A DNA stretch of 64,000 nucleotides from a virus. Under the pieces are notes generated by a model, which searched no databases, had not been told where the DNA came from, and saw only the letters and a program-made list of their open reading frames with translations. Shown here in pieces: positions 5,818-51,220 of the stretch. A program made the translations under genes and the position numbers. How positions within the stretch are numbered: the first letter of the stretch is position 1; each line of letters starts with the position of its first letter. The stretch is from positions 7,383 through 71,382 of IMG/VR virus record IMGVR_UViG_3300036828_000565; one strand, given 5' to 3'.

Positions 5818-7617
5818 ATGCCGAATAAGAAAAAGAATTCTTTAAGAAACAGCCTTCTTCCGGCAAATGACGATAGGAATTATATTCGTCAAGAAATCAT
5901 TGCTAAAGATTCATATAGTAATGTTCCAGCTAGAATTGGTGAGGGAACTCCCAATTTAACTCAATCTGGCCAGTATCCTTTATTAAGAATTACTGAAGAC
6001 TATCCTCTTATTCTTAGTCTCTATCGTTCTTCATGGGTCGTTCGTCGTGTTATCGATAGTGTAGCTAATGACATGTATAGTGCATTTCCTATTTTAGATT
6101 CACAGATTACTCCTCAACAAATTACATCTTTTCATAAAGTCATCAAAAAGACTGATACTGTTAAAAAATTGAAGAGTGCGGCAAAGTGGGGTCGTCTCTT
6201 TGGAGGAGCGGCGTGTATCATAGTTATTGATGGTCATGATGATTTAATGGAGCCTTTAGATGTTGATGAAGTTGAGATAGGTTCCTATAAAGGTCTCATT
6301 CCTTTAGATCGTTGGTCTGGAATTATTCCAGGTCCTGAAATTGATTCAGATGTCAATAACCCAAAGAATTTTGGTTTGCCAACTTACTATACTTGTATCA
6401 TGGATGCGGGAAGCGTAAATGTTCATCATTCAAGAATTATCAGGTTCACTGGTCGTGAGTTACCACAATGGGAAGTTCAGGTAGAACTATACTGGGGTAT
6501 GTCAGAGGTTGAGGTTATCTTTGATGAACTTAGAAAGAGGGACTATTCATCTTGGAACATTATCTCACTCTTGACAAGAGCTCAGATTCTCTCTATCGAG
6601 GAGCCACAATTAGCTACTTTGATGAGTGGTGCTGGTGGATCAAATACTGCTTACAATAACTTTACTCAAAGAATGGAGTCAATAAGCCAGCTTTTAAATA
6701 ATCAAGGACTTCTTGTACTTGGTAAGGATGGAAAACTTAACCAAGCTAGTTATAGTTTTGGTGGCATTTCTGATGTTTATCATGAGTTCATGAAGGATCT
6801 TTCAGCTGCTTGTGAGATTCCATATGAGATAGTTTTTGGCCGTGAATCTGGTATGGGTGGTGGTGGTAACTTCTCTAGTAATGGACAATCTTCTCTTCAA
6901 CTCTATGATAACATGGTTGAACAGAAACGTAATAGTGAAGGTAACCCAGTAATTGATAAGTTACTTCCTATTATTTGTATGAGTACTTGGGGACAGATTC
7001 CAGATGATATAGCTTATCACTGGGCTCCTATTAGATCTATTAGTGATAAGGAACGTACTGATCTTGGTAAATCATTAGTAGAGTCTATCCTAATGGCTTA
7101 TAATGCTGATCTCATTACAAAACAAGAGGCAAGAAAAGAGTTAGCTCAACAGAGTGGTACTAATGGTCTCTTTAGTAACATATCTGATGAATCAATTGCT
7201 GAGACTCCAGATAAGTTTGCTAGTGAGATACAGGCTGAGCAACAAGAGGACCAGATGCTTAAACAAGCAGCTATGCAAAAGGCAATGATGGGTGGTGCAG
7301 GTGGAGGTGGTGCTGGTGGTGCTGGTGGTGCTCCTCCATCTAATGGTGCCGGAGGTGGTAAAGCTGGTGCCGGCGCTTCACCTGCGATGGGAACTAGAAT
7401 GGGTGAACAAGTTCCTATTGAATCTAAACCAATTGGAGTTGAAGGTTTAAAGTGGCATAAGAGTAGAAGAATAACTACCGGAGGAAAAAGTAACACATCA
7501 GCTGAAGCTATGAAACAATCAATGAGACACTCTGTTAAGCATGAGATGAAGAAACCTGTTAAAGATAGTGATGGCGTTATAGATGGTTCTTTTATGATGT
7601 CTAAACCAATGAGATAA
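5818..7617 (+). CDS. Phage portal protein (DUF1073/HI1409 family) with Gly/Ala-rich C-terminal extension
   Basis: LYRSSWVVRRVID, WGRLFGGA, HHSRIIRFTG, WGMSE, IPYEIVFGRE motifs; ATG 5818 after AAGGA. Confidence 0.9.
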   Translation: MPNKKKNSLRNSLLPANDDRNYIRQEIIAKDSYSNVPARIGEGTPNLTQSGQYPLLRITEDYPLILSLYRSSWVVRRVIDSVANDMYSAFPILDSQITPQQITSFHKVIKKTDTVKKLKSAAKWGRLFGGAACIIVIDGHDDLMEPLDVDEVEIGSYKGLIPLDRWSGIIPGPEIDSDVNNPKNFGLPTYYTCIMDAGSVNVHHSRIIRFTGRELPQWEVQVELYWGMSEVEVIFDELRKRDYSSWNIISLLTRAQILSIEEPQLATLMSGAGGSNTAYNNFTQRMESISQLLNNQGLLVLGKDGKLNQASYSFGGISDVYHEFMKDLSAACEIPYEIVFGRESGMGGGGNFSSNGQSSLQLYDNMVEQKRNSEGNPVIDKLLPIICMSTWGQIPDDIAYHWAPIRSISDKERTDLGKSLVESILMAYNADLITKQEARKELAQQSGTNGLFSNISDESIAETPDKFASEIQAEQQEDQMLKQAAMQKAMMGGAGGGGAGGAGGAPPSNGAGGGKAGAGASPAMGTRMGEQVPIESKPIGVEGLKWHKSRRITTGGKSNTSAEAMKQSMRHSVKHEMKKPVKDSDGVIDGSFMMSKPMR

Positions 7618-32479: not shown

Positions 32480-32773
32480 TTATCTGATATCATAAGTCAA
32501 TTCACAGTTATGATAGACCACTTTGGTCTTTGGCCTTTCTGGATCAGGGTCTATTATAGTTGTATCATGCTTAGCGTCACAAACAGCCGTGACATTTCCT
32601 TTGGAACTATGATCAATATCTAACTTTATCTTGCCTGAGCTAAGTTTAGTTACTTTGGGTTTTTGTCGATCGTTTGCATTAGCACTGTTAAGTTGAGCAA
32701 ACGCTCTTGATACTGGTCTACCGTATTGAGCAACCCACATTATCAAGGCTATGAATCCAATAAATTTAAGCAT
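32480..32773 (-). CDS. Hypothetical protein with N-terminal hydrophobic segment
   Basis: MLKFIGFIALIMWVAQY; GGAG RBS. Confidence 0.6.
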   Translation of the reverse strand: MLKFIGFIALIMWVAQYGRPVSRAFAQLNSANANDRQKPKVTKLSSGKIKLDIDHSSKGNVTAVCDAKHDTTIIDPDPERPKTKVVYHNCELTYDIR

Positions 32774-33197
32774 AAATTTTCTCCAATCTAGTTAGTTCAT
32801 TAGGCCTGGACAATATTCCTTTGATATCTGGAGGGATATAGTCCGGGCCTTTTGGTGTCTTTGTACCGTATTTCTGACCATCAACTGCTTTAACAGCTGT
32901 TTTGCTCATGTTGCTTCTGTGAACTTCAATAAAGATACGTTCTATAGGAATACCATAAGAAACACAAGTACCTATAACAACATAAATAAGATCAGCTGCA
33001 CCATCTGCAATTTCTTCTAAACTTCCTTCTTCTATCCCTTTAAGCATCTCTGCGCACTCTTCTAGTATTAATTCACTTCTTAATAGTTTAATAGAATCAG
33101 GAGGAATGCTAGGATAGTTAGAAATCATGTGACCGTATTTTTCATGAAAGTCTTTTAACATCTGTTCAAAGTTCAAAGATAATGTTTTCGTGTTCAC
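32766..33197 (-). CDS. MazG-like/PRA-PH nucleotide pyrophosphohydrolase (candidate dCTPase/dUTPase)
   Basis: LILEECAE, EIADGAADLIYV, EVHRSNMSK, KGPDY.PPD motifs. Confidence 0.85.
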   Translation of the reverse strand: MNTKTLSLNFEQMLKDFHEKYGHMISNYPSIPPDSIKLLRSELILEECAEMLKGIEEGSLEEIADGAADLIYVVIGTCVSYGIPIERIFIEVHRSNMSKTAVKAVDGQKYGTKTPKGPDYIPPDIKGILSRPNELTRLEKIYA

Positions 33198-33621
33198 TTC
33201 TACTCCTTTCCATAAGATGTCTAATTGATTCTACGCCGTGTCCTTTAGAGAAATAAGGACCTTTAAATAAAGGTATAGAATCCTTATCTTTATCTACTCT
33301 AAATGTTGAGAGTTGTGTGGTACTTAAAACAGCAGTCATCTTAATATCTGGATAGTAAATAACATATAGAACTAAAGCGTATCTTGATATTCGTTTACAG
33401 ACTTCATATTGACGAATATCGTTTATAGCTTCCCAGGGAAAACAACATGTTTCATCTGCCCCAGTCCCTATTTTGGTTTCATAGAATGTTACAAAACTAT
33501 GTTTAATGTGCATGTTATCTGGAAGACCTAACATTACTTTATCGCTAATCTTAATGATCTTCCCACCAATTTCTTTTCTAAGCTTTGAAGCAAGTAACCC
33601 ACTGAATGTTGATTCTTTCAT
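33166..33621 (-). CDS. PD-(D/E)XK nuclease (resolvase/VRR-NUC-like)
   Basis: MKES.F, GLPD, FYETK and Q motifs. Confidence 0.65.
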   Translation of the reverse strand: MKESTFSGLLASKLRKEIGGKIIKISDKVMLGLPDNMHIKHSFVTFYETKIGTGADETCCFPWEAINDIRQYEVCKRISRYALVLYVIYYPDIKMTAVLSTTQLSTFRVDKDKDSIPLFKGPYFSKGHGVESIRHLMERSRSEHENIIFEL

Positions 33622-34625
33622 TCAATCAACCTTTCTATGGTAGATATCACTTCTTCCTTGCTAGAGAGATGACTCTCCAGCCATTCTCTTTGAGCTACGA
33701 CTCTCTCCTCATATTCTTGAGGCCCCGCCAGAGATTCGAAATCACTAGAACTACCTCTATATGCTTCACCCATTAAGGAGGCGTCTCTAAAATCTGAATA
33801 GATTATCGTTTCAGCCCACGCTGCATTTAGGTACCTTGTTCTCCACCACCCCGACCCAGCTGAAGGATATCCACAAGATAGGATACCAAAACTATCTGCG
33901 AATAATTGAATAGTTTGAGACTCATTTAGAACAAAACCATCACCCATTCTTTTATTTCCAACATAGGAAACAGGAAACTCAAATCCTTGTTTGTTGACCC
34001 ATCTAGAGTGATCAGAGAGGGCTGCCATGATCCACCGTTTTTTCTTATTGTAAAATGTTGGAATGTCGATAGTTGGATACTTGACCCAACTTGATGGATC
34101 AACAGTATATAGGGTGGCATTATAGTTTTCTCTCATTAAAAATTCATGATCTCCCCAAGAAAACATTGGGGCTAATACAGGAGCATTGTTTCCGGCTAGT
34201 GCTATAGACACCATTAAGGAAAGACTGTTATAAGTACTTTCTATAGCTTCTGGACTACATTTAAAGTTCCTATAATCGAGATACTTTTCCCATCTTTCAA
34301 GAGTGTATCTTACCGAAGGACCGAAGTTACAGAAACTCCAGTCGTCAGCAAAAACAGCAAATTTTCCTTGCATTTGATCCATAGCATAATGAGTCTCTGG
34401 CACTAAACCCGCTGATATCGAACTTAAAGGAGCAACTCCTAGGAATGCGTATCTGTATTTCCAGGTTAAATCTTCTCCTATTATTACTTTCCTTCTTTCT
34501 ACATCATATCCCATATCTTTTAAGATATCCTCTAGAACATAGGCGAACGTCACGTAGTCACCTTGAATCCTAGTACTACCTGATGTTCGAGTGGTATAGC
34601 CAGATATTAAGATCTTATGCTTCAT
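33618..34625 (-). CDS. Putative DNA glycosyltransferase (GT-B-like fold)
   Basis: N-terminal KILISG and MGYDV; C-terminal FADSFGILSCGY.SAGSGWWRTRY..AA....IIYSD resembling a GT-B nucleotide-sugar-binding region; located in the modification cluster. Confidence 0.55.
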   Translation of the reverse strand: MKHKILISGYTTRTSGSTRIQGDYVTFAYVLEDILKDMGYDVERRKVIIGEDLTWKYRYAFLGVAPLSSISAGLVPETHYAMDQMQGKFAVFADDWSFCNFGPSVRYTLERWEKYLDYRNFKCSPEAIESTYNSLSLMVSIALAGNNAPVLAPMFSWGDHEFLMRENYNATLYTVDPSSWVKYPTIDIPTFYNKKKRWIMAALSDHSRWVNKQGFEFPVSYVGNKRMGDGFVLNESQTIQLFADSFGILSCGYPSAGSGWWRTRYLNAAWAETIIYSDFRDASLMGEAYRGSSSDFESLAGPQEYEERVVAQREWLESHLSSKEEVISTIERLIE

Positions 34626-34941
34626 TATCCTTTAGATCTCCCCATCTTATACAATTACCAACAGCTTCTTCACATTCTTTTCTATTTTTAAGTAACTTAT
34701 CTAAGAATTTAGGATCAACTTTCAAATCTATAACACCTCCAAAAGCTTCTCCACCTGGGTTAATTCCAAGTTCATGAGTCTTCATCACAGCAGATAAGAA
34801 CCCAGGAGCTTTCGTTATTACGGCTCCAAGAAATCTATTAGGTTCAGCAAATGATATATAGAAAAGTTGCTCAGGGTTATTTCTTTCTTCTTCTAACATA
34901 GCTACGAATCTAATTGCAGAATCAACGGTTATTTCATTCAT
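34615..34941 (-). CDS. Hypothetical protein
   Basis: ATGA overlap with the polymerase stop; FYISFA..FLGAV...GINPGGE. Confidence 0.65.
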   Translation of the reverse strand: MNEITVDSAIRFVAMLEEERNNPEQLFYISFAEPNRFLGAVITKAPGFLSAVMKTHELGINPGGEAFGGVIDLKVDPKFLDKLLKNRKECEEAVGNCIRWGDLKDNEA

Positions 34942-36836
34942 TCTGTACACCTCCTCCAATTTTCCCCTACTTTTATCTTCCAAAGAAGTGGTACACGGCA
35001 TGGAATACGTGAGTCAGGAGCCTCCAATAACTCTTTGAAATTTTTGGCTTTGGCCCTGTTCTCGATATCGCCATCGATCTCATCGTGTACAGTTGCACGA
35101 AGGTCCATTGTAAGTAACTTTCGGTTGCGATAAGTTTCGAGAATTTTGACCTTAAGAGTTTCGGCTGCGGTTCCTTGGATAATTGCGTTAAGAGCTGAGT
35201 GTAATCTTTCGCCGGTGGGATACCTTCGGCGTCGACCCATGATTGTATGGACATAGCCACGATTCTTTGCAACTCGCATTGCCTCTTGAGATAGACTCTT
35301 AGCTTCTGGAAATTTCTCATCATATTCTCTTGATATTGCAAAAGCCTTTTGCATCATGCAAGTTTTCTTATGATTTGCTTTGCACCACTGATCTCCTGGT
35401 GGAACCCCACAATTACATGGACAACCAAGTTTACGAGCTAATTTAGGAATTCCCATCGTATAGAGTTTTCCAAAGTTATTGTGCTTAGCATCTTTTCGTT
35501 TTTGACCAAGCAAATTAGCCACCAGTTGATGGAAATCCATTGTTGGGTCGGAACAGTAAGCAGAAATGAGTTTGTCTGATCTTGAATAATGGACGAACCA
35601 ACGGAATTCGATCTGGGAAGCATCAGCTGAGACGTAGAGCTTTCCGTCAGCAGGGATGAAGAGTTCTCGTAAAATCCAAGCAGCAATCTCATATTCCTCT
35701 AATTGAGATTCAACTTTCATGACTTGTTGAATGTTAATGCCCTTCTTATCTATTCCTCCAGAAGAAGCATATCGTCCGGTAACTGTTCCAAATTCATCAC
35801 TTCTTAATTGATGAAGTTGATAACGTAAGATGTTGTTGGCATCTAATAGATTACGATACTTTATAAGATACTTAGTTAGTAGTGAGTGAAGTTTTCGAGC
35901 CAACAAAATTGCTCTTACGCATGGGTGTTGTATTCTTCTTAGATACTCTTCTTCAAAGGTAACTTCACCGCCTAATTCTTCTTCTCTTCGTGGATATTCT
36001 AATCCAAGAGCATTAAATAATCGTCTAAGATCTGGACCGGAGTTAGGATTAACTTTAACTCCGGTCTGAGCATATAAAGAAAGAATCGCAGATTGATGTG
36101 CTTCTTCAACTTCTCTAATCCATAATTCTAATTTAGATCTATCTATTCTAGCGCCTGCTCGTTCCATAGCTACTGTTGAATAAATTAATTGGTCTTCAAG
36201 CTCGCAAACTGCAGTAAGTCCTTGATTGTCAATTTCTTCTTGTTGAAAAATGTCGAGTTCACGATGTAAGAAAGCGTCATGTTCCGCATAGGTCCCGACT
36301 TCACTAGCAGCCATGTCGGCAATGTTGTACTTTTCGCCTTCTGTTTCTTCTTTACTGATCCCCAATACATCGTTCGATAATTGATTGAGATTGAAGCGTC
36401 TACGATTTTCATCAAGTAAAGCCGCTTTGAAAGCAGGATCATGTACTTTAACATCGAGTTCTTCGAGATCCAATTCCCAGTTATAACAAACTTGAATATC
36501 ACCTTTTGCGTTGAGAATGCAGAGATGTCTACCTCTAAGGTTTCCTTTAGCCCAACGCCGTACGGTGTTTTCGTCAAGATTTCCTCCAGCTCGGTGACCG
36601 ACAGGCAGATAGTATCTTCTACCAAGGGGATCGCAAATCGCAATTCCAGCAAGTCTAGAGCGATAGATGTTTTTATTGGGGAGTTCAAATTCTGTATCAA
36701 AACCAAATTTCTCCTTTAAAGGAATTTGAGAAAAATCGGGTAGCTCGGCTGGAGCTACCCAACCAGTAGGTGCATGGTTTCCACTAAATAAAGATCCCAC
36801 CATTTCGGGTTGTGGATATCTTTTAGTCGGGCACAT
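34938..36836 (-). CDS. polA: Family A DNA polymerase with 3'-5' exonuclease domain
   Basis: Exo FDTE, NAKGD, YAEHDA; TGRYAS; motif A DASQIEFR, motif B RKDAKHNNFGKLY, motif C TVHDEI. Confidence 0.95.
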   Translation of the reverse strand: MCPTKRYPQPEMVGSLFSGNHAPTGWVAPAELPDFSQIPLKEKFGFDTEFELPNKNIYRSRLAGIAICDPLGRRYYLPVGHRAGGNLDENTVRRWAKGNLRGRHLCILNAKGDIQVCYNWELDLEELDVKVHDPAFKAALLDENRRRFNLNQLSNDVLGISKEETEGEKYNIADMAASEVGTYAEHDAFLHRELDIFQQEEIDNQGLTAVCELEDQLIYSTVAMERAGARIDRSKLELWIREVEEAHQSAILSLYAQTGVKVNPNSGPDLRRLFNALGLEYPRREEELGGEVTFEEEYLRRIQHPCVRAILLARKLHSLLTKYLIKYRNLLDANNILRYQLHQLRSDEFGTVTGRYASSGGIDKKGINIQQVMKVESQLEEYEIAAWILRELFIPADGKLYVSADASQIEFRWFVHYSRSDKLISAYCSDPTMDFHQLVANLLGQKRKDAKHNNFGKLYTMGIPKLARKLGCPCNCGVPPGDQWCKANHKKTCMMQKAFAISREYDEKFPEAKSLSQEAMRVAKNRGYVHTIMGRRRRYPTGERLHSALNAIIQGTAAETLKVKILETYRNRKLLTMDLRATVHDEIDGDIENRAKAKNFKELLEAPDSRIPCRVPLLWKIKVGENWRRCTE

Positions 36837-37278
36837 ATATCCTTCCAGCTATCTGTACTGCACACCCTGCTTCTAATAGAACAGTTAACCCAGACTTATC
36901 TGCATATTCTTCAATACATATAATAGCACCAATGTTTGTATTAACAATCATCTTAGCGCAAACAAAACAAGGAGTACAAGATGCGTACATAACACTAGCC
37001 CTACTAAGATCACTACACTGTAAAAGAGCGTTTTGTTCAGCGTGGACTGCCATACACTGTGATGTATCCCCTGATTTATCAGTAGCCCCCAAACAAGGAA
37101 CATCGATGCAATGATCAAAATTCTTGGGTACTCCGTTGTAACCAGTACTAAGAACATGTCCCTCCTTATCTGTTATAATAGCTCCAACTTTTCGTCTAAT
37201 ACATGTACTGCGGTTTGCTACTAATTTAAGCATCTCTAAATAATACTCAACTTTTGTTAATCTTGTTTGGGAGTTCAA
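36823..37278 (-). CDS. dCMP deaminase
   Basis: RSTC.RRKVGA, TGYNG, HAEQNA, PCFVC zinc motifs. Confidence 0.92.
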   Translation of the reverse strand: MNSQTRLTKVEYYLEMLKLVANRSTCIRRKVGAIITDKEGHVLSTGYNGVPKNFDHCIDVPCLGATDKSGDTSQCMAVHAEQNALLQCSDLSRASVMYASCTPCFVCAKMIVNTNIGAIICIEEYADKSGLTVLLEAGCAVQIAGRIYVPD

Positions 37279-38104
37279 GTAGTACCTCCAAGGCAGAATG
37301 TTTATCTTGTTCTAAAGCCGTAGCGTAACTTTTCCATGGTTCTTGTAAAGAGGCTGTTGGTTCTTTTCTTAATAGTATATTAGACATAACATGTTTTCCT
37401 GGAAATATGTTAGTTATTGTAGGAGAATAATGATAGTTAGCATCTTCAGACATTAATAGTGCCATAGCATTTTGAATGTTTATTTCATATAAGTGACTAG
37501 AAGCAAGGTTCATAGTAATTGAACCTACAGGTAAATTTAAATAAGAAGCTACTACATTAGTGTATTGAGTAAAAGTAAAGAAATCATATGGAAATCCTAA
37601 CCATACATCTGAACTTCTCATATTAACAGTAACATGTAATGCTCCTTCTCTAATAAGCCATTGAAGAGAAATAGTACAAGGTACATCTAATGAAGTAGAA
37701 GGTGAAGGAGTCCAAATAGTTGCTACAGCCTGTCTAGAATCCTGTTTTCTTAAAGATTCTAATATATAAAAAAGTTGAGGTCTTAAACGAGGACCATAAG
37801 CTCCTGATAGTATCTGCCCATCATCACTAAAATCTTTCATCACGGAATTGTATCTAATCAAATAAGAGAGCTCATTTAATCCAGCTTGAATCCAAAGCCA
37901 TTCTGCTATCATGAATCTATAATTTAAATCTCTGCTTGGACTAAGAATGATATTGTTAAGAGCCTTTTTAACTTCTACTGAAACGTTCATTATTTCTATA
38001 GTTCTTTTTCCTCTAGGAGAACTACTTACACCAATTTGAAATAAAGATGTAATTAATGCTCTCCATGCGTGTGAAACGCTTCCTTCTTTAATTAGTAGAG
38101 CCAT
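37247..38104 (-). CDS. Thymidylate-synthase-family enzyme, probably a dCMP C5-modifying enzyme (hydroxymethylase-like)
   Basis: AEWLW, GAYGPR, DSRQA, catalytic PCT, MRSSDVWLGFPYD with Asp at the E. coli ThyA Asn177 position, SSHLY. Confidence 0.85.
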   Translation of the reverse strand: MALLIKEGSVSHAWRALITSLFQIGVSSSPRGKRTIEIMNVSVEVKKALNNIILSPSRDLNYRFMIAEWLWIQAGLNELSYLIRYNSVMKDFSDDGQILSGAYGPRLRPQLFYILESLRKQDSRQAVATIWTPSPSTSLDVPCTISLQWLIREGALHVTVNMRSSDVWLGFPYDFFTFTQYTNVVASYLNLPVGSITMNLASSHLYEINIQNAMALLMSEDANYHYSPTITNIFPGKHVMSNILLRKEPTASLQEPWKSYATALEQDKHSALEVLLELPNKINKS

Positions 38105-39011
38105 GTATTCTTTCCTTAATAATGTCAGCAAGGACCTGTGAATTAGATCCTTTAAAACGTTTTAAATAAGATGGATGGGGAATGTAAGAAGTTTTGTATA
38201 TATGAGTAGCTCGCTCATCATACCATGCTTTAGCTGCTTGTCCCATTAAGAAAATATGCTCTATGTTGTTAAGCCAAGCAAGCATCGCTCCTAATGAGTG
38301 TATGTGATTTATCGGACTAAAAGCATTTGAGATGGCAATTTCTGATTCTTTTAATCCAGCCTTTATAAGAGCACTATTGAAATAACCACTCGATCCATTT
38401 AGTGCATGAAAAGGCACGTCGATACTAGGATGATTTGGTCTATCACCTATAAATAGATACTTTGCCTGTTTAGATCCTACTAAACCTTTAGGAGATCTAT
38501 TAGGTGGAAATTTATCTATATCTTGAATTAAAGATTCTACATTATTTTTCTCATAGTTAAAAATTCTACACTTGTTACTATAAGTCCAATCGAGATAACT
38601 CTCATACACTTGTTGAAATTTTTCCATAGATTTAAGAAAATCATTTGGATCTTTCATTTTAATAGAATAGTTATCTATAGCTACTTGTCTAAATGGAAGA
38701 CAAATAATTTGAGTGACTTCCTTACTATCACAGAGTCTCGTAAATAAAGTTTGACCATTATGTCCAAGACGATCTATTCCTCTTACTATTGGACCGTAGA
38801 TACGTTCACCTAACCAAAGACGATCATGAACAACATTTTGAGAACCTTCAATAGATTCATTTAGAATCTCAAGATAGTAAGCAATAAGATCTATATTATC
38901 AGGAGGGGGTCCTTCATGTTTGTATTTAAATCCAAACTCTTTTTCTAGTCTTTTAGCTAAGATAGTTTTACCACCTCCATCAGGACCTTCTAAAATTATT
39001 ACTTGTCCCAT
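38088..39011 (-). CDS. P-loop dNMP kinase fused to a uracil-DNA-glycosylase-superfamily domain
   Basis: IILEGPDGGGKT and HDR..LGE.IYG; C-terminal LFIGDRPN..PF..SSG, ISNA, FLMGQAA, HPSY. Confidence 0.8.
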   Translation of the reverse strand: MGQVIILEGPDGGGKTILAKRLEKEFGFKYKHEGPPPDNIDLIAYYLEILNESIEGSQNVVHDRLWLGERIYGPIVRGIDRLGHNGQTLFTRLCDSKEVTQIICLPFRQVAIDNYSIKMKDPNDFLKSMEKFQQVYESYLDWTYSNKCRIFNYEKNNVESLIQDIDKFPPNRSPKGLVGSKQAKYLFIGDRPNHPSIDVPFHALNGSSGYFNSALIKAGLKESEIAISNAFSPINHIHSLGAMLAWLNNIEHIFLMGQAAKAWYDERATHIYKTSYIPHPSYLKRFKGSNSQVLADIIKERIHGSTN

Positions 39012-39352
39012 TATGTTACCTCCGGCATAGTAACAGCAAAAGGAAAATCACAAACTTGGCACTGACAGTGAAAGTGTTCAAAATTAAGGTGAGCACAGAT
39101 AATGGTATGTTTTTCAGTTTTCTTTTCTCCAGAAAATGGATTCATCAATTCTTGTTCAATCTCTGCGGGTTGACTACCTCTACAATATGAAATAGGAAAG
39201 GCACCTCTTTTTTTAAAGACATCATCTGTGTATTTACATTTGGGACATGTCAAAACAGCTATCGGAATTTTTCGTCCGAAAACTTTATATCTAAATTTGG
39301 GAAAGGAAATTACAGGGAGGGTAGGAATAATAGAATCTAATTCAGATGTCAT
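39011..39352 (-). CDS. Zinc-ribbon protein
   Basis: CPKC and HCQCQVC motifs. Confidence 0.65.
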   Translation of the reverse strand: MTSELDSIIPTLPVISFPKFRYKVFGRKIPIAVLTCPKCKYTDDVFKKRGAFPISYCRGSQPAEIEQELMNPFSGEKKTEKHTIICAHLNFEHFHCQCQVCDFPFAVTMPEVT

Positions 39353-43227: not shown

Positions 43228-43702
43228 GTTTTAACTCCTCTATTTTTCTATTGAGATACCATGATGCTTTCTCCAGATTTTCTAGAGGATTTCCTTTCTT
43301 ATCCCACCTTGAGATATACTTAATTGTGTTTCCTAAATGAAAATCTAGTTTCCATGCTTCAATTACTTTAATAGCTTCATATGTTGTATCACCACCGTAG
43401 TGAGCTGGGTGATTTACTGATTTAGATTCTATTGGAAACACTGGATTAGATCTTTGGACTACATTAAATTTATCTCTATAACCATAGACAAATTTAGACC
43501 CAGAAGGTAGCCATTGTTTGACTATTGCTGTTACGGTTTCTTTATATTCAGGACCTGGAGTTATTACTTCAATTGTGTAATCAAAGGTTACGCTCCATTC
43601 CCAACTATATGTTTCTCCTAGTATTTCTTTTAGTCTAGGAAATACTTCTAGCATAAAAGATTTCCTGAGTTCAGGAAGTCTAGCATCTTCTACGTTTATC
43701 AA
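43214..43702 (-). CDS. DUF3310 (T7 gp1.7/SaV-like) domain protein, candidate nucleotide kinase
   Basis: VNHPAHY, EAIKVIE, FHLGNTIKYISR..KKGN..E.LEKA.WYL. Confidence 0.8.
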   Translation of the reverse strand: MINVEDARLPELRKSFMLEVFPRLKEILGETYSWEWSVTFDYTIEVITPGPEYKETVTAIVKQWLPSGSKFVYGYRDKFNVVQRSNPVFPIESKSVNHPAHYGGDTTYEAIKVIEAWKLDFHLGNTIKYISRWDKKGNPLENLEKASWYLNRKIEELKHGKL

Positions 43703-44427
43703 TGTGGTCTCCTCATATTGTCAATTTGTCTTTCCCCTGGAATGATGTCATCAAAGAGCAGTGGTACGTTTTGCTGAAATTCTCTAAGTAATGAATCACA
43801 GATTTGACGAATTTGAGGATGAGCTTCTTTGGTTGTCCTCATAAGTAGCAGGTGTCTCCAACTACGAAGATTGGCAGTCGTTAGAATCTTGGCAGCTAGA
43901 GCATTAGGGAGAACTGAACGAGCTTCTTGAGGTCTCATGCCATTCTGTAAAGCTTTCTTATAATAAAACTCAGCATCATGAATAGCATTCATCCAACCGT
44001 CGTCATTGTGGCAGTCTTCTTGATTTTCTCCATGCCACCATAAACCATCGCTGTCTCGCCAAGCCTCGTCACCATCTAAACACCTAAAACAGGTTCGATC
44101 AGGAACCGGGTAAATGAAACTCGGTGGCATCTTCTTCTCATAGTTTACGAATCTAGTAGACTCTTGCGTAAAAGACATAAGACGATGACGAACCCACTCA
44201 TGAGTGATGCCCCTGTCCATAACTGCCATGACTGATATTGAACAATGCTCAACAACAGACCAATCACCGTGATCCACAACCACATTCTGAATAAACCTAT
44301 TCCATGTGTTTTCATTCATGTTCTCTTCTGAGCGATGTGAAATTCGGGCCCCAAACTCAATCATCTTTAAACCTTCACTTAATAACTCAGGTTTAAGAAT
44401 GTGCGCGAATGGCTTGATTATCTTCAC
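43699..44427 (-). CDS. thyX: Flavin-dependent thymidylate synthase
   Basis: RHRLMSFTQES (RHRx7S), SVVEH, QEARSVLPNA, NLRSWRH, AHPQIR. Confidence 0.93.
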   Translation of the reverse strand: MKIIKPFAHILKPELLSEGLKMIEFGARISHRSEENMNENTWNRFIQNVVVDHGDWSVVEHCSISVMAVMDRGITHEWVRHRLMSFTQESTRFVNYEKKMPPSFIYPVPDRTCFRCLDGDEAWRDSDGLWWHGENQEDCHNDDGWMNAIHDAEFYYKKALQNGMRPQEARSVLPNALAAKILTTANLRSWRHLLLMRTTKEAHPQIRQICDSLLREFQQNVPLLFDDIIPGERQIDNMRRPH

Positions 44428-44549: not shown

Positions 44550-44732
44550 TTAGGATTTAATATTGAGCGCATTTTTCAACTTGTTTAATAGTTCAGGATC
44601 TAATTTTCTTTCATCGAGAATAACACCTCTTGGTTTAAATCCTTCTGCTGTTATAGCTTCGTTTAAATGTGTCCATTCTTCAATGGTAAATTTAAAACGA
44701 ATTATCTGCCAATCAATTCCTCTAACCATCAT
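44550..44732 (-). CDS. Hypothetical protein
   Basis: ATGA overlap with the primase stop. Confidence 0.55.
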   Translation of the reverse strand: MMVRGIDWQIIRFKFTIEEWTHLNEAITAEGFKPRGVILDERKLDPELLNKLKNALNIKS

Positions 44733-46219
44733 AGATCTGTTCCTTCTGGTTCAAATATCGCGTCATCATAATTTTCTGTTTGACGATTAACAGATGATGC
44801 TGCTATTGTCCATGCTCTTATTACTTTTCCTTTTATCTTAATCGTTTCTGATATACATTTTCTTTCATGAAGTATAGCAAATAGATCTTGATTTTGAATC
44901 ATTATCTTCTGAGACAATAGGTATCTTTGAAGATAGGATACTTGAAATAGTATCTTATCTTTTTCAAATATCGGCATACCTCTTAATAGATCCTCTCTAC
45001 TTTTAGAGCGTTCACTTAAGGCTAAGAAATCATCAATCTTTTCATTAACAGATCCATAATTTGAAGCATCTTCAGGAGCCTCAATATCTGTTTTAGTAGT
45101 TAATAGATTCTTTAATTTTTGTTCCCATTGAGCTTGTTTTATTGGTCGTAATATAAGATCTTGAATTTCAAAGATACGTTTACGAAATTTTTCAAAGTTA
45201 CGAAACTCATCTGAACTTAAATGAATATCTCTTGAGTTTACTTCAACTGTATATGTTGGAGGATCTGTAAGAATCTTTCTTAAGTTTTGTACGTTTAACT
45301 CATCAAAATTGTTTTCGTCTTCCCATGGCTTGTTACCGACTCCGAATGGGAGAGTGAGGCAAGTCTTCCTATCACAGTGAGAGCAAAGTGGCTCCTCATC
45401 ACACTTATATTGATACTGTCGCAGTCCGAGACTTTTAATGAGCGCTTCCAATTCATTAGAAGGCAAAGGAGGCGAAACATAATTTTTATTATAGTTACGT
45501 AGTTTATCTTGCCAACCATTTGGACTTGATTTTCTGTAAAAGACTCCGTATGAAAAAAGTCCGACATTACGAGATCCGGTTCCGAGTCCTTCATGATTTA
45601 ATTCCTTTAAACATGGTGGCATCTCTCCTATCTGAACTAAATCTAAACCAATTGTTTCATCTATTTTTTCATTTCCGGTATAGTAGCAAACCGAGTTAAG
45701 AAATTCATCGATATCGTAGGAGCCGTTATTTCCAACCGCATATCTGACTGTGTTTGAAGCGTTGAAATAAGGAAGGTTGATCCAGTTTCCAATATTATCT
45801 GTAGTACTTTTTGCTTGCTTGGGAAATATTTCTGTTTTAGACGGATAGCCGAGGAGAGAAGCCCACTTCCTGAGTAAGTATTGTACGGTAGTAGAATTAA
45901 TTGGTTTGTTGAAGAAAACGTAGAGATGAGCTCCACCACTTTTACTTCTACAGACGGATAGAGGGAGACTTCGTTTAGATACACGCGCATATAACTCCTT
46001 ATGATCAATTGTGTCTATATCTAAATCTATAGCCCCGAAGTAACACATCCCATTTTCATCAACAGGAACTATTCCAAGTCCTAGGTCCCCGACTAAGTGC
46101 CGCCGATAGTCTTCTTCCGTAGCGGGAGACAAAAGCGTGGCCATCTTACCTGTAGATTTTTCCCAGGTACCATGAGCAAGTCCGGATCCCCTAAATAAGC
46201 CAGCGAACTTATCTAACAA
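44729..46219 (-). CDS. AEP-superfamily primase/primase-polymerase with PriCT-like domain
   Basis: FGAIDLD, RSKSGGAHLYVF, EIFPKQ, GNWINLPY, PPCL, G.RN..LF, PPL...E, C..EPLCSHC...C; TTG start. Confidence 0.85.
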   Translation of the reverse strand: MLDKFAGLFRGSGLAHGTWEKSTGKMATLLSPATEEDYRRHLVGDLGLGIVPVDENGMCYFGAIDLDIDTIDHKELYARVSKRSLPLSVCRSKSGGAHLYVFFNKPINSTTVQYLLRKWASLLGYPSKTEIFPKQAKSTTDNIGNWINLPYFNASNTVRYAVGNNGSYDIDEFLNSVCYYTGNEKIDETIGLDLVQIGEMPPCLKELNHEGLGTGSRNVGLFSYGVFYRKSSPNGWQDKLRNYNKNYVSPPLPSNELEALIKSLGLRQYQYKCDEEPLCSHCDRKTCLTLPFGVGNKPWEDENNFDELNVQNLRKILTDPPTYTVEVNSRDIHLSSDEFRNFEKFRKRIFEIQDLILRPIKQAQWEQKLKNLLTTKTDIEAPEDASNYGSVNEKIDDFLALSERSKSREDLLRGMPIFEKDKILFQVSYLQRYLLSQKIMIQNQDLFAILHERKCISETIKIKGKVIRAWTIAASSVNRQTENYDDAIFEPEGTDL

Positions 46220-46271: not shown

Positions 46272-47096
46272 TTAAAATGCTTGATGTTGTCCTTCTATAT
46301 CATTAGCTCCATGACCAAATTCTACTTCAGCTTCTTCACCAGTCGTATCAATTTTGATATTACTAGCTTTGAGTTTCTTAAACAAATGATCCATTTGATC
46401 AAAGAGTTCTCGATTTACGTATTTATCAGGCGTGATCTTTTTTTCAAACCATTGATTCTTATCTTTTTTCATTTCAACTACAGTTACTCTATAATACTTT
46501 GAAAACATTGGCATGTTAGTGAGACGAACAGCAGCTAAAAGTTGTTTTGATAATTTTAGTCCGGTAGATTTATAACTTACAGCAATTGGAGAAGGTATCT
46601 CAACATCAGGCATGAATGCCATAAAATTATGATATAGAGTACATAGTGGTGGATCATTTGCTGATTCAGATTCTTTAAGTGCCCCGTTACCCCAACTGCT
46701 AAATTGGCATGAAGCACAACTTGCTGGAGAAAGTCGTCCTCCATCAATCGCATTCACGGATATACAGTCTATACCCCCACCCTCATCTATATCTATGTAT
46801 TTGATTCTATTCTTAAAAAAGAATAAAGCAATGACAACTAAATCAATTCCATAAATTTCTTGAGTTACTGTATTAAAGAGTTGTCCTTCTTCTAAACCTG
46901 GAATATAAGCTGAATCACTTTTACGACGCTGAGGTGAAAGCGACTGACATAGACCAAGTCTAGGAAGTAGAATATCTGAGCTATCTACATCTTCCATACC
47001 TGCTTGATTACCAATTGTGCCCCTTAGAAACTCAGGGACCTCTTGATAGAGAGATGAATGTTTTTGTTTAGCTAATTCATTATCATTCGTCGTCAT
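46272..47096 (-). CDS. Probable single-stranded DNA-binding protein
   Basis: G.ED...DI.LPRL...Q.LSP, F.KSTGLK.SK-like motif, acidic tail ending in F; replication cluster. Confidence 0.6.
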   Translation of the reverse strand: MTTNDNELAKQKHSSLYQEVPEFLRGTIGNQAGMEDVDSSDILLPRLGLCQSLSPQRRKSDSAYIPGLEEGQLFNTVTQEIYGIDLVVIALFFFKNRIKYIDIDEGGGIDCISVNAIDGGRLSPASCASCQFSSWGNGALKESESANDPPLCTLYHNFMAFMPDVEIPSPIAVSYKSTGLKLSKQLLAAVRLTNMPMFSKYYRVTVVEMKKDKNQWFEKKITPDKYVNRELFDQMDHLFKKLKASNIKIDTTGEEAEVEFGHGANDIEGQHQAF

Positions 47097-47598
47097 AATT
47101 TACTCCCCTAATCATTATTGATTGTTTAAAGTATGGTTCGATTCCAGCAGGAACCGGTTGTCCATCTATAAGTCTAGATTTAACTAGACTGTTCATTGTT
47201 TGATAGTTTACTGAGAGAAGATCTTCCATATCATTTTCAGATATCCAGCTCATAAACGCTGGCTTATCTTTGACAGAAGAATAAACATCATCTTTAATTG
47301 AAATAGATACTCCACCCTCAAGTTTGACGCTAGTGTAATCTTGACTTTCCATCATTTCAATTAATTCTTGTTGAGTTGCTTCTACTATAATTTGTTGAGC
47401 TTTTATTAATGCATTAAGTCTAGCTTTCTCGGCTCTTGCTTTTGCGTAAACGATACCTAAACTTTTTACGGTTACTTGTTTACCGCTAGCTAAAAGCTCT
47501 CCTTTAACTTCATCTTTCATGAGGTTAACCTTAGATTGATAGTCGGGTTCTACCTCTACTTTAGTGAGTTGACTCTTAAATCCACTATATTTTCCCAT
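47083..47598 (-). CDS. Conserved phage replication/recombination coiled-coil protein
   Basis: Coiled N-terminus; AF..W..EN...DL...VN.QT....V......G...P.GI pattern. Confidence 0.6.
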   Translation of the reverse strand: MGKYSGFKSQLTKVEVEPDYQSKVNLMKDEVKGELLASGKQVTVKSLGIVYAKARAEKARLNALIKAQQIIVEATQQELIEMMESQDYTSVKLEGGVSISIKDDVYSSVKDKPAFMSWISENDMEDLLSVNYQTMNSLVKSRLIDGQPVPAGIEPYFKQSIMIRGVNYDDE

Positions 47599-50758: not shown

Positions 50759-51220
50759 TTAAATAACACCTGTAGGCCAGAAATAAGGAAGATTAGGATC
50801 CTCATCTGGCCAATATTGTCTATAATGTGTTGGGAGTTTTCTTACAAGATTTGATCGGTGCGATCTATGAAATGGTTCGTATCCGAGAAAAGAAGGAGGA
50901 TTTTCTTTTAATCCTAAATCATAATCCAAGCATTCTATAGAGTTACTATAGCCTCTTGAACACCATTCTCCTACAGCACAGGCTAAGTAATACTTAAGCC
51001 ATTCTTCGTGACCTGCCCACATTATTACAGCAGGATGATTCTTCCATTGAGAATTACTAAAATCAAAAGGAACTAAAGAATGAAGATTACTTGGAAGTAC
51101 CGGTTGATTAAGCAAAATTTCTAATATTTGAGCCGCTTCTATTCTCTGTTTTCCGAGCCTTTGATAGTCAAGGTACTCCATTGACTTCACGAAACTCTTC
51201 ACCGGTAGAAAGGTTTGCGT
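50759..51220 (-). CDS. Pyrimidine-dimer DNA glycosylase/endonuclease V-like (MSMEG_6728-type); probable ACG start
   Basis: (ACG)QTFLP..SF..S...LD..RLGKQR.EA.QIL, NHPAV.MW.GHE, EW..RGY, HRSHRSNL.RK, LPYFWP. Confidence 0.8.
   Translation of the reverse strand, partial: TQTFLPVKSFVKSMEYLDYQRLGKQRIEAAQILEILLNQPVLPSNLHSLVPFDFSNSQWKNHPAVIMWAGHEEWLKYYLACAVGEWCSRGYSNSIECLDYDLGLKENPPSFLGYEPFHRSHRSNLVRKLPTHYRQYWPDEDPNLPYFWPTGVI

Follow-up and report, generated by a model that had tools for sequence, protein, structure and literature searches.

A nucleotide kinase fused to a minimal, cysteine-free uracil-DNA glycosylase-fold domain in phages predicted to modify cytosine

The 64,000-nucleotide stretch analyzed here (the window; positions 7,383 to 71,382 of the virus record IMGVR_UViG_3300036828_000565, a 71,382-bp genome rated complete) encodes a two-domain protein in which a nucleotide kinase is joined to a uracil-DNA glycosylase (UDG) fold. 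Its open reading frame (ORF) occupies positions 38088 to 39011 of the window on the minus strand, begins with ATG, ends with the stop codon at 38088-38090, and specifies 307 amino acids; the first-pass annotation had not given the strand, and the plus-strand frame of the same interval is riddled with stops. That annotation had proposed a deoxynucleoside monophosphate (dNMP) kinase followed by a domain with the layout of a family 4 UDG but without its Fe-S cysteines. Every motif quoted in support of the proposal is present in the translation (GPDGGGKT at residues 9-16, HDR at 62-64, IGDRPN at 188-193, PF at 200-201, SSG at 207-209, SNA at 228-230, LMG..A at 255-260, and HPS at 279-281), and both folds were confirmed. 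A search of a collection of 5.8 billion proteins provided 80 homologues with E values up to 0.001, of which 75 carry both halves and five the kinase only, as judged with our own domain hidden Markov models. Forty-eight of these sequences were aligned (alignment A1) to define the invariant columns and to calculate an AlphaFold2 model of the whole ORF, for which the predicted local distance difference test (pLDDT) was 95.9 and the predicted template modeling score (pTM) was 0.92; Foldseek with this model retrieved family 4 UDGs and nucleotide kinases alike. We conclude that the ORF encodes a dNMP kinase fused to a family 4-like UDG domain lacking Fe-S cysteines, an architecture that exceeds chance because the C-terminal profile match, the fold matches of the model, and the near-invariant motif residues of the 48 homologues all point to it. 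A known kinase fold and a known glycosylase fold, the latter in reduced form, are thus combined in an undescribed and widespread architecture.

The UDG-fold domain comprises residues 172-307 (38091 to 38498, minus strand) and contains motif A (G189-D190-R-P-N193), F201, S208, N229, and motif B (H279-P-S-Y-L-K-R285). Among the 48 homologues, F201, N229, H279, P280, R285, and F286 are invariant and G189, D198, P200, and S208 nearly so. The match of the window protein to the Pfam UDG family PF03167 is sub-threshold (18.6 bits versus a gathering threshold of 24.3, E value 0.0021), and a precomputed match to this family is on record for 22 of the 80 homologues. A profile constructed from the C-terminal domain only (A3, 25 sequences) matched the Thermus thermophilus family 4 UDG (UDGA, 1ui0) with an E value of 4.6e-7, pairing GDRPN with GEGPG, PF with PF, the Asn with that of ITN, LG..A with LGAVA, and HPxYLKR with HPAYLLR. 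Structural comparison of residues 172-304 by VIA gave a Z score of 14.0 with UdgX (6l6s; root-mean-square deviation 2.7 over 130 residues) and 13.5 with the Sulfolobus tokodaii family 4 UDG (4zbx), the top Foldseek matches were 1ui1, 1l9g, and 1vk2, and a structure search of the Atlas returned a type 4 UDG cluster at a TM score of 0.76. The first-pass annotation had staked its proposal on this half having a UDG fold, and by Foldseek, VIA, and the A3 profile match to the Thermus enzyme the domain belongs to the UDG superfamily. It shares with the family 4 UDGs (1ui0, Thermotoga TM0511, and 4zbx) and UdgX the fold, the order of motifs (G-acid-x-P-x, PF, N, LG..A, and HPxYLxR), and the acid, Asn, His, and Arg residues, but differs from them in having approximately 135 rather than 190-205 residues, in its GDRPN motif, and in its fusion to a kinase. 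A 4Fe-4S cluster is a defining feature of family 4 UDGs. Its four cysteines are absent here: no Cys is found beyond residue 171, and the Cys-bearing insert of the Thermus enzyme has no counterpart in the A3 alignment, so that a 4Fe-4S cluster is not expected.

Functional roles have been assigned to four residues of UdgX and the family 4 enzymes (counterparts E52, N91, H178, and R184): the Glu of motif A activates the water, the Asn and the motif B His hold the uracil, and the motif B Arg binds the substrate (PMC10359453). All four positions are kept in the window-type domain, the first as Asp or Glu, and the stacking Phe is kept as well. Motif A of family 4 reads GE(A/G)PG and includes the water-activating Glu (PMC10359453); the window has GDRPN and its relatives G-[D/E]-x-[P/V/A]-[N/G], such that the acid is near-universal and the third and fifth positions deviate. 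The family 4 motif B, HPS(S/A)(L/V)(L/V)R, and the uracil-reading Asn are matched in the window type by H279-P-S-Y-L-K-R285 and N229. Three functions had been suggested for the domain in the first-pass annotation, namely excision of uracil or of deaminated modified cytosine, attack on unmodified host DNA, and the binding and channeling of the modified nucleotide to the kinase. On the basis of the retained Asn, acid, His, and Arg, excision of uracil or of a deaminated modified cytosine would fit best.

Removal of a cytosine-type base, either unmodified or modified, as a weapon or as quality control of complete cytosine replacement, is very improbable in our assessment. In its favor, the gene is tightly linked to a hydroxymethylase cassette described below, and T4-type phages destroy cytosine-containing DNA. 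UDG-fold enzymes can also excise cytosine derivatives, as exemplified by Brig1, which likewise is tied to 5-hydroxymethylcytosine (5hmC)-type phage DNA (PMC11078745). In Brig1, a host protein whose pocket is enlarged, Glu occupies the Watson-Crick-face position that is Asn in uracil enzymes (PMC11078745), whereas the phage-encoded domain has an invariant Asn there, as do uracil-specific enzymes. Because of this residue, a uracil-type rather than a cytosine-type base is the more probable target, and attack on unmodified host cytosine is disfavored.

The kinase domain (residues 1-171; 38499 to 39011, minus strand) has the fold, the Walker A sequence (GPDGGGKT), and the D-R motif of the P-loop nucleoside-monophosphate kinases of the thymidylate kinase/deoxynucleoside kinase/YorR group, and G9, D11, G12, G14, K15, D63, R64, R77, and R92 are invariant in the 48 homologues. 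Residues 1-174 matched phrog_761, labeled "thymidylate kinase" (E value 3.1e-16), only marginal matches to P-loop families were found in single-sequence searches, and a profile search of the PDB identified YorR (2axp, E value 4.6e-10). The nearest fold to residues 3-173 of the model is that of YorR from Bacillus subtilis SPbeta (3kb2, Z score 16.8 by VIA), with thymidylate kinases at approximately 14; we know of no established function for YorR. The dTMP (thymidine monophosphate) kinase model TIGR00041 scored 18.1 bits versus a cut-off of 83.25, covering the P-loop only, and Pfam Thymidylate_kin was not listed for the window protein at E values up to 0.1. The dNMP kinase of T4, gp1, is a functional analogue by its predicted common role, the phosphorylation of 5-hydroxymethyl-dCMP (5hm-dCMP; dCMP is deoxycytidine monophosphate) beside a dCMP hydroxymethylase. 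T4 gp1 (1dek/1del) was not seen among the best 60 of 169 PDB sequence matches (E value up to 1) or among the Foldseek and VIA matches listed, an absence that leaves similarity possible. Apart from the fused ORF, the classical Walker A kinase motif was seen in the 71,382-bp genome only in a terminase-like ORF and two unlikely matches, which leaves the fused ORF as the sole plausible classical P-loop nucleotide kinase of the phage.

The genes of the neighborhood are located on the same strand and overlap or abut. Downstream of the fusion, a homologue of thymidylate synthase ThyA (37247 to 38131, minus strand; Pfam Thymidylat_synt, 1.3e-20) probably begins at an ATG near 38104 and overlaps the 3' end of the fused ORF. 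Its best PDB match was the CMP 5-hydroxymethylase MilA (E value 4.4e-19), and the alignment places D-V-P-C opposite D-V-A-C and ...PYD opposite ...VSD, with the same Asp residues. According to the published rules for ThyA homologues, in Escherichia coli numbering, N177D indicates a dCMP substrate, L143D/E a hydroxymethyl rather than a methyl product, and D169N a 5-hydroxy-dCMP synthase (PMC13326640). The neighbor carries L143D, C146, D169, and N177D, numbered by counting from the catalytic Cys rather than by superposition, and this is the published signature of dCMP hydroxymethylases. We considered and rejected a 5-hydroxy-dCMP synthase, for which D169N is diagnostic, because D169 was kept in all 74 rows of ThyA homologues aligned.

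Several further genes of the window would fit with replacement of cytosine. A dCMP deaminase (36823 to 37278, minus strand; Pfam dCMP_cyt_deam_1, 1.5e-18; phrog_174, 1.9e-39) precedes a family A DNA polymerase (34938 to 36836, minus strand; NCBIfam DNA polymerase I, 1.6e-51). A 335-residue GT-B-fold glycosyltransferase, a candidate DNA (5hmC) glycosyltransferase, is encoded at 33618 to 34625 (minus strand); it had no Pfam or NCBIfam match, its profile search against PDB sequences was empty, its one weak PHROG match was to a family without an assigned function, and the fold search alone placed it, the AlphaFold2 model (pLDDT 87) matching SenB and the T4 beta-glucosyltransferase 1qkj in Foldseek (TMq 0.61, TMt 0.59). 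From this model and its conservation next to the fusion in all 37 loci of one clade (clade 2, described below), it probably represents a DNA 5hmC glycosyltransferase family outside the Pfam, NCBIfam, and PDB-sequence searches run here. A nucleoside triphosphate (NTP) pyrophosphohydrolase of the MazG/PRA-PH type (32766 to 33197, minus strand; Pfam PRA-PH, 1.9e-15, and MazG, 0.0049) is a candidate dCTPase by analogy with gp30 of Stenotrophomonas phage AXL3 and T4 gp56. Farther upstream of the fusion, a flavin-dependent thymidylate synthase, ThyX (43699 to 44427, minus strand; Pfam Thy1, 6.2e-41), would make dTMP. Because the pyrophosphatase, hydroxymethylase, kinase, glycosyltransferase, deaminase, and ThyX genes all occur in this genome, the set is predicted to mirror the logic of T4, with a pyrophosphatase that depletes dCTP, a dCMP hydroxymethylase, a kinase, a DNA glycosyltransferase, and a dCMP deaminase plus ThyX for dTMP. 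Searches of the genome for a dUTPase and for a second UDG were empty, both results carrying little weight since the UDG search, which was of the same kind, missed the known UDG domain too.

For comparison of loci, we used the best 80 of 141 IMG/VR stretches that encode a relative, together with AXL3 (81 loci in total). The ThyA homologue was present in 73 loci and lay directly downstream of the kinase or fusion in 72. Asp occupied the position of E. coli N177 in 73 of the 74 ThyA rows, the remaining row being cut by a contig end, and the full L143D/C146/D169/N177D signature was seen in 70 rows (the window and 69 loci). The association with an Asp-type synthase that the first-pass annotation had predicted was therefore borne out. 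The C-terminal domain was found in 69 of the 81 loci. When its profile was searched against 1.84 billion representatives, 1,316 proteins or clusters were obtained at E values of 1e-10 or lower; the best 150 included 138 new proteins, 133 of which had the kinase as well, and the five exceptions were mostly fragment-like. Feature neighbors in the ESM Atlas include viral clusters of 124-146 amino acids, partly labeled PF03167, that resemble the domain, and by this likeness stand-alone mini-UDG forms probably exist, which suggests that the domain is able to work on its own. Full-length look-alikes were also present in BFVD, including a protein of Bacillus phage G. This protein, Gp315 (G3MA56, 331 amino acids), aligns along the whole model at a low TM score (0.46) and may, from that model comparison, be a remote kinase-UDG fusion whose domains are arranged differently.

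The results are consistent with the fusion combining a 5hm-dCMP/dNMP kinase with an active glycosylase for a uracil-type base, uracil or 5-hydroxymethyluracil (5hmU), in a cytosine-replacing phage, and we assign to this sequence-based reading a probability of about 0.5. On top of the observed folds, catalytic-type residues, conservation, and synteny, we propose both substrates, the catalytic activity, and the reason for the fusion as follows. The phage would replace cytosine with 5hmC, which probably is then glycosylated. The kinase half would phosphorylate 5hm-dCMP, the product of the neighboring ThyA homologue, to yield the diphosphate, the task of T4 gp1, with dTMP perhaps serving as a further substrate. 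The UDG half would flip uracil, or 5hmU arising from deaminated 5hmC or 5hm-dCMP, out of the DNA and cut the glycosidic bond, leaving the phage DNA free of bases that tend to enter through the rewired pyrimidine pathway. Fusion would co-locate base excision with precursor synthesis and the replication machinery, as in the fusions of UDG to DNA polymerase PolA. Active UDG domains are joined to PolA in phages of the SP-15/YerA41 type, which contain modified thymine, and removal of deoxyuridine (dU) was given as the rationale (PMC13697223). In both cases, a phage with a replaced pyrimidine has joined a UDG to an enzyme of DNA synthesis; here the partner is a nucleotide kinase and the base predicted to be replaced is cytosine rather than thymine, and activity was demonstrated for the PolA-UDG proteins only (PMC13697223).

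A pairing by chance of an ordinary dTMP kinase with an ordinary uracil repair enzyme, unrelated to cytosine modification, appears quite unlikely to us. Relatives of the protein are named "thymidylate kinase" in databases, thymidylate kinases are among the nearest folds, and the phage also makes dTMP by way of the dCMP deaminase and ThyX, all of which would suit such a pair. The poor TIGR00041 score argues against it, as do the near-universal Asp and the adjacency of the downstream ThyA homologue and the finding that no other candidate for a 5hm-dCMP kinase was seen in the genome.

Hardly any credence is given to a kinase that acts on DNA, in which the UDG fold would flip 5hmC or 5hmU and the kinase would phosphorylate the hydroxymethyl group in the manner of the 5-HMUDK enzymes. 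Those enzymes are P-loop kinases of the same broad class that act on DNA (PMC8989533), and fusion to a base-flipping domain would be mechanistically sensible. Nevertheless, the window protein had no match to PF18748 (HMUDK_HMUD1) at E values up to 0.1, whereas the prototype 5-hmdU DNA kinase, gp54 of Pseudomonas phage M6, matched at 7.7e-18, and hhalign of A1 with M6 gp54 aligned only the 22 columns of the P-loop (probability 64%). The ORFs scanned included neither an amino-acid:DNA transferase nor another downstream gene of hypermodification, the same synteny surrounds the kinase-only relatives, and the phage would then be left without any 5hm-dCMP kinase. The aGPT-Pplases that accompany 5-HMUDK kinases have a helix-hairpin-helix glycosylase-like fold (PMC8989533); the window protein did not match the Pfam aGPT-Pplase family, and its C-terminal domain instead has the alpha/beta UDG fold. 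We therefore rejected a thymidine-hypermodification enzyme of the 5-HMUDK plus aGPT-Pplase kind, for which PF18748 is unmatched, the fold differs, and the neighboring ThyA homologue is cytosine specific.

Several observations weigh against a kinase joined to an active uracil-type glycosylase. Catalysis by any member of the family is a prediction from sequence, and for neither domain does the window protein reach the cut-offs of Pfam and NCBIfam. The reading is weakened by the kinase-only relatives, which account for 12 of the 81 loci (one at a contig end) and have no separate UDG ORF in their flanks. The 69 fused loci split into 32 of the window type, with family 4-like motifs, and 37 of a second clade (clade 2), in which motif A reads LCDKGP, with Cys for Gly, and motif B reads PPPLYH, with Pro for His and no basic residues in the loop, a sequence that departs from the family 4 motif B; the PF, Ser, and Asn residues and the Asp are retained. 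The clade 2 domain is homologous to that of the window type by hhalign (probability 97.9%), on which the homology rests, as its profile gave no UDG match among PDB sequences. The domain of clade 1, the window type, has a median charge of +1 and an isoelectric point (pI) of 8.4 compared to -1 and 6.3 for the near-neutral domain of clade 2, a difference too weak to decide DNA binding. Because this 37-locus clade lost the motif B His, the motif A Gly, and the basic loop, uracil excision may not be the conserved function. The dCMP deaminase was found in the flanks of 26 of the 32 window-type loci, none of the 37 clade 2 loci, and seven of the 12 kinase-only loci. Since the domain does not track the deaminase, clean-up of deaminase-derived dU is unsupported as the reason for the fusion, and we rejected the idea that the UDG compensates for deaminase-derived deoxyuridine monophosphate or dU, given the lack of co-variation.

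The kinase assignment meets a further difficulty in the 5-hydroxycytosine gene clusters, which encode "nucleotide kinases" resembling YorR and thymidylate kinase (DLP3_078, RB69p045, and RL38J1_214; PMC13326640). As in the window, these clusters place a small P-loop kinase beside a MilA-like ThyA homologue and contain DNA glycosyltransferases, but their kinases have no UDG domain and their ThyA homologues carry D169N where D169 is kept here (PMC13326640). The 5-hydroxy-dCMP kinase assayed from RB69 and DLP3 was of the T4 gp1 type and not their YorR-like kinase (PMC13326640), and consequently the equation of a YorR-like kinase with a modified-dCMP kinase remains inferential. The kinases of these clusters did not come up in a tblastn search of the phage collection.

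One further observation concerns the locus L027 (5992-6966), where a fused relative has a degenerate C-terminal domain in which Asn and His are each replaced by Ser and motif A is unrecognizable; from its sequence, the pocket seems to have decayed in a single lineage. Separately, the clade 2 loci (L033-L081, e.g., L033:5120-7711) show a compact cassette on 37 contigs in which genes for a GT-B protein, the fusion, and a 260-residue ThyA homologue overlap one another.

The variation between clades bears on whether the UDG fold is catalytic at all. It could instead serve as a base- or nucleotide-binding or DNA-tethering module that holds the kinase, hydroxymethylase, and glycosyltransferase at replicating DNA, or that controls or supplies the kinase by binding a pyrimidine nucleotide; we regard this as a tentative alternative and, overall, an unlikely one. 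Retention of the pocket residues (Asp, Pro-Phe, Asn, and Ser) in clade 2, without the His and the basic loop, would be explained by such a role, and so would the overlap of the clade 2 glycosyltransferase, fusion, and ThyA genes as a single cassette, the GT-B homologue being directly upstream of the fusion in 37 of 37 loci. The presence of the kinase in nearly all of the best domain-profile matches points in the same direction, and the pTM value suggests a fixed arrangement of the two domains. The four catalytic or DNA-wedge residues that are near-invariant in the clade of the window are hard to explain without catalysis, however, and the kinase-only relatives indicate that the domain is dispensable for the kinase. 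The stand-alone mini-UDG-like viral proteins also speak against a binding module. Moreover, UDG families 2 and 5 are active although each is without one of the two catalytic motifs. The nucleotide binding or channeling raised in the first-pass annotation gains some support from clade 2, in which the His and the basic loop are gone.

It is doubtful, though conceivable, that the mini-UDG is a dedicated part of the machinery making 5hmC-DNA rather than a repair enzyme. This is left possible because of the near-obligate fusion (133 of 138 proteins) and the overlapping glycosyltransferase-fusion-ThyA cassette. The domain may sit at the replication fork as a reader or excision unit that checks the DNA for un-hydroxymethylated or deaminated pyrimidines; in the His-less clade, its role may be confined to flipping bases or binding nucleotides, by which it would link the supply of precursors (kinase and hydroxymethylase) and glycosylation to the replisome; and in an extreme form, it may direct its kinase partner to 5hmC in DNA, which would be phosphorylated there.

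Full-length homologues with both domains are encoded by two cultured phages, as gp29 of Stenotrophomonas phage AXL3 (27.6% identity) and as an unannotated ORF of Pseudoxanthomonas phage PW916 (26.6%). The order of fusion, ThyA homologue, and dCMP deaminase is the same in AXL3, an NTP pyrophosphatase and ThyX are present, and no GT-B homologue was found in the 8-kb flanks. AXL3 DNA resists restriction enzymes with G/C in their sites: of 37 enzymes, two (TasI and Tru1I, both with A/T-only sites) cut it (PMC7504290). The available part of that report names gp29 solely as a thymidylate kinase and does not contain the word "glycosylase" (PMC7504290), and the available part of the PW916 paper does not mention a glycosylase domain (PMC9414467). 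In the MetaGPA paper, "UDG" and "kinase" both have zero occurrences. We found no description of a kinase-UDG fusion in the literature searched, a scope that did not extend to the supplements of PMC13326640 and PMC8989533, which might list such proteins.

Phages that replace cytosine must rebuild their pyrimidine pool, and how unwanted bases are kept out is poorly known outside T4. With 1,316 representative clusters and 141 IMG/VR stretches, the fusion marks out a large viral family, and its C-terminal half is the smallest, cluster-free family 4-type UDG seen here, tied to a kinase next to a DNA glycosyltransferase and a predicted dCMP hydroxymethylase. Should the glycosylase prove active, base excision would be built into modified-DNA synthesis in a second, independent case, after the PolA-UDG proteins of thymine-modified phages, and enzymology would gain a UDG scaffold of 135 residues; an inactive domain would mean that the UDG fold has been put to a new use. 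The fusion further marks AXL3-like and numerous uncultured phages as probably having 5hmC-type genomes, which matters for sequencing, restriction mapping, and their predicted sensitivity to modification-dependent defenses.

Additional features of the window were noted. A Cys-rich ORF of 113 amino acids (39011 to 39352, minus strand) shares one nucleotide of its stop codon with the start codon of the fused ORF and has no family match; it displays CxxC and CxCxxC patterns, and homologues lie upstream of the fusion in eight close loci (L002 and L005-L011). The best NCBIfam score of the family A polymerase (34938-36836) was to the aminoadenine-incorporating DpoZ at 246.9 bits, far under the cut-off of 500. 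A second DNA glycosylase of the phage, of the DenV pyrimidine-dimer type, is encoded at 50759-51202 on the minus strand (Pfam Pyr_excise, 4.5e-19). A primase domain (AEP, "TOTE conflict system" type) together with PriCT-1 is encoded at 44729-46219 (minus strand), and it is followed at 46272-47598 (minus strand) by matches to gp34-like and gp33-like families of cyanophage Pam3, which hint at kinship with Pam3-type siphophages.

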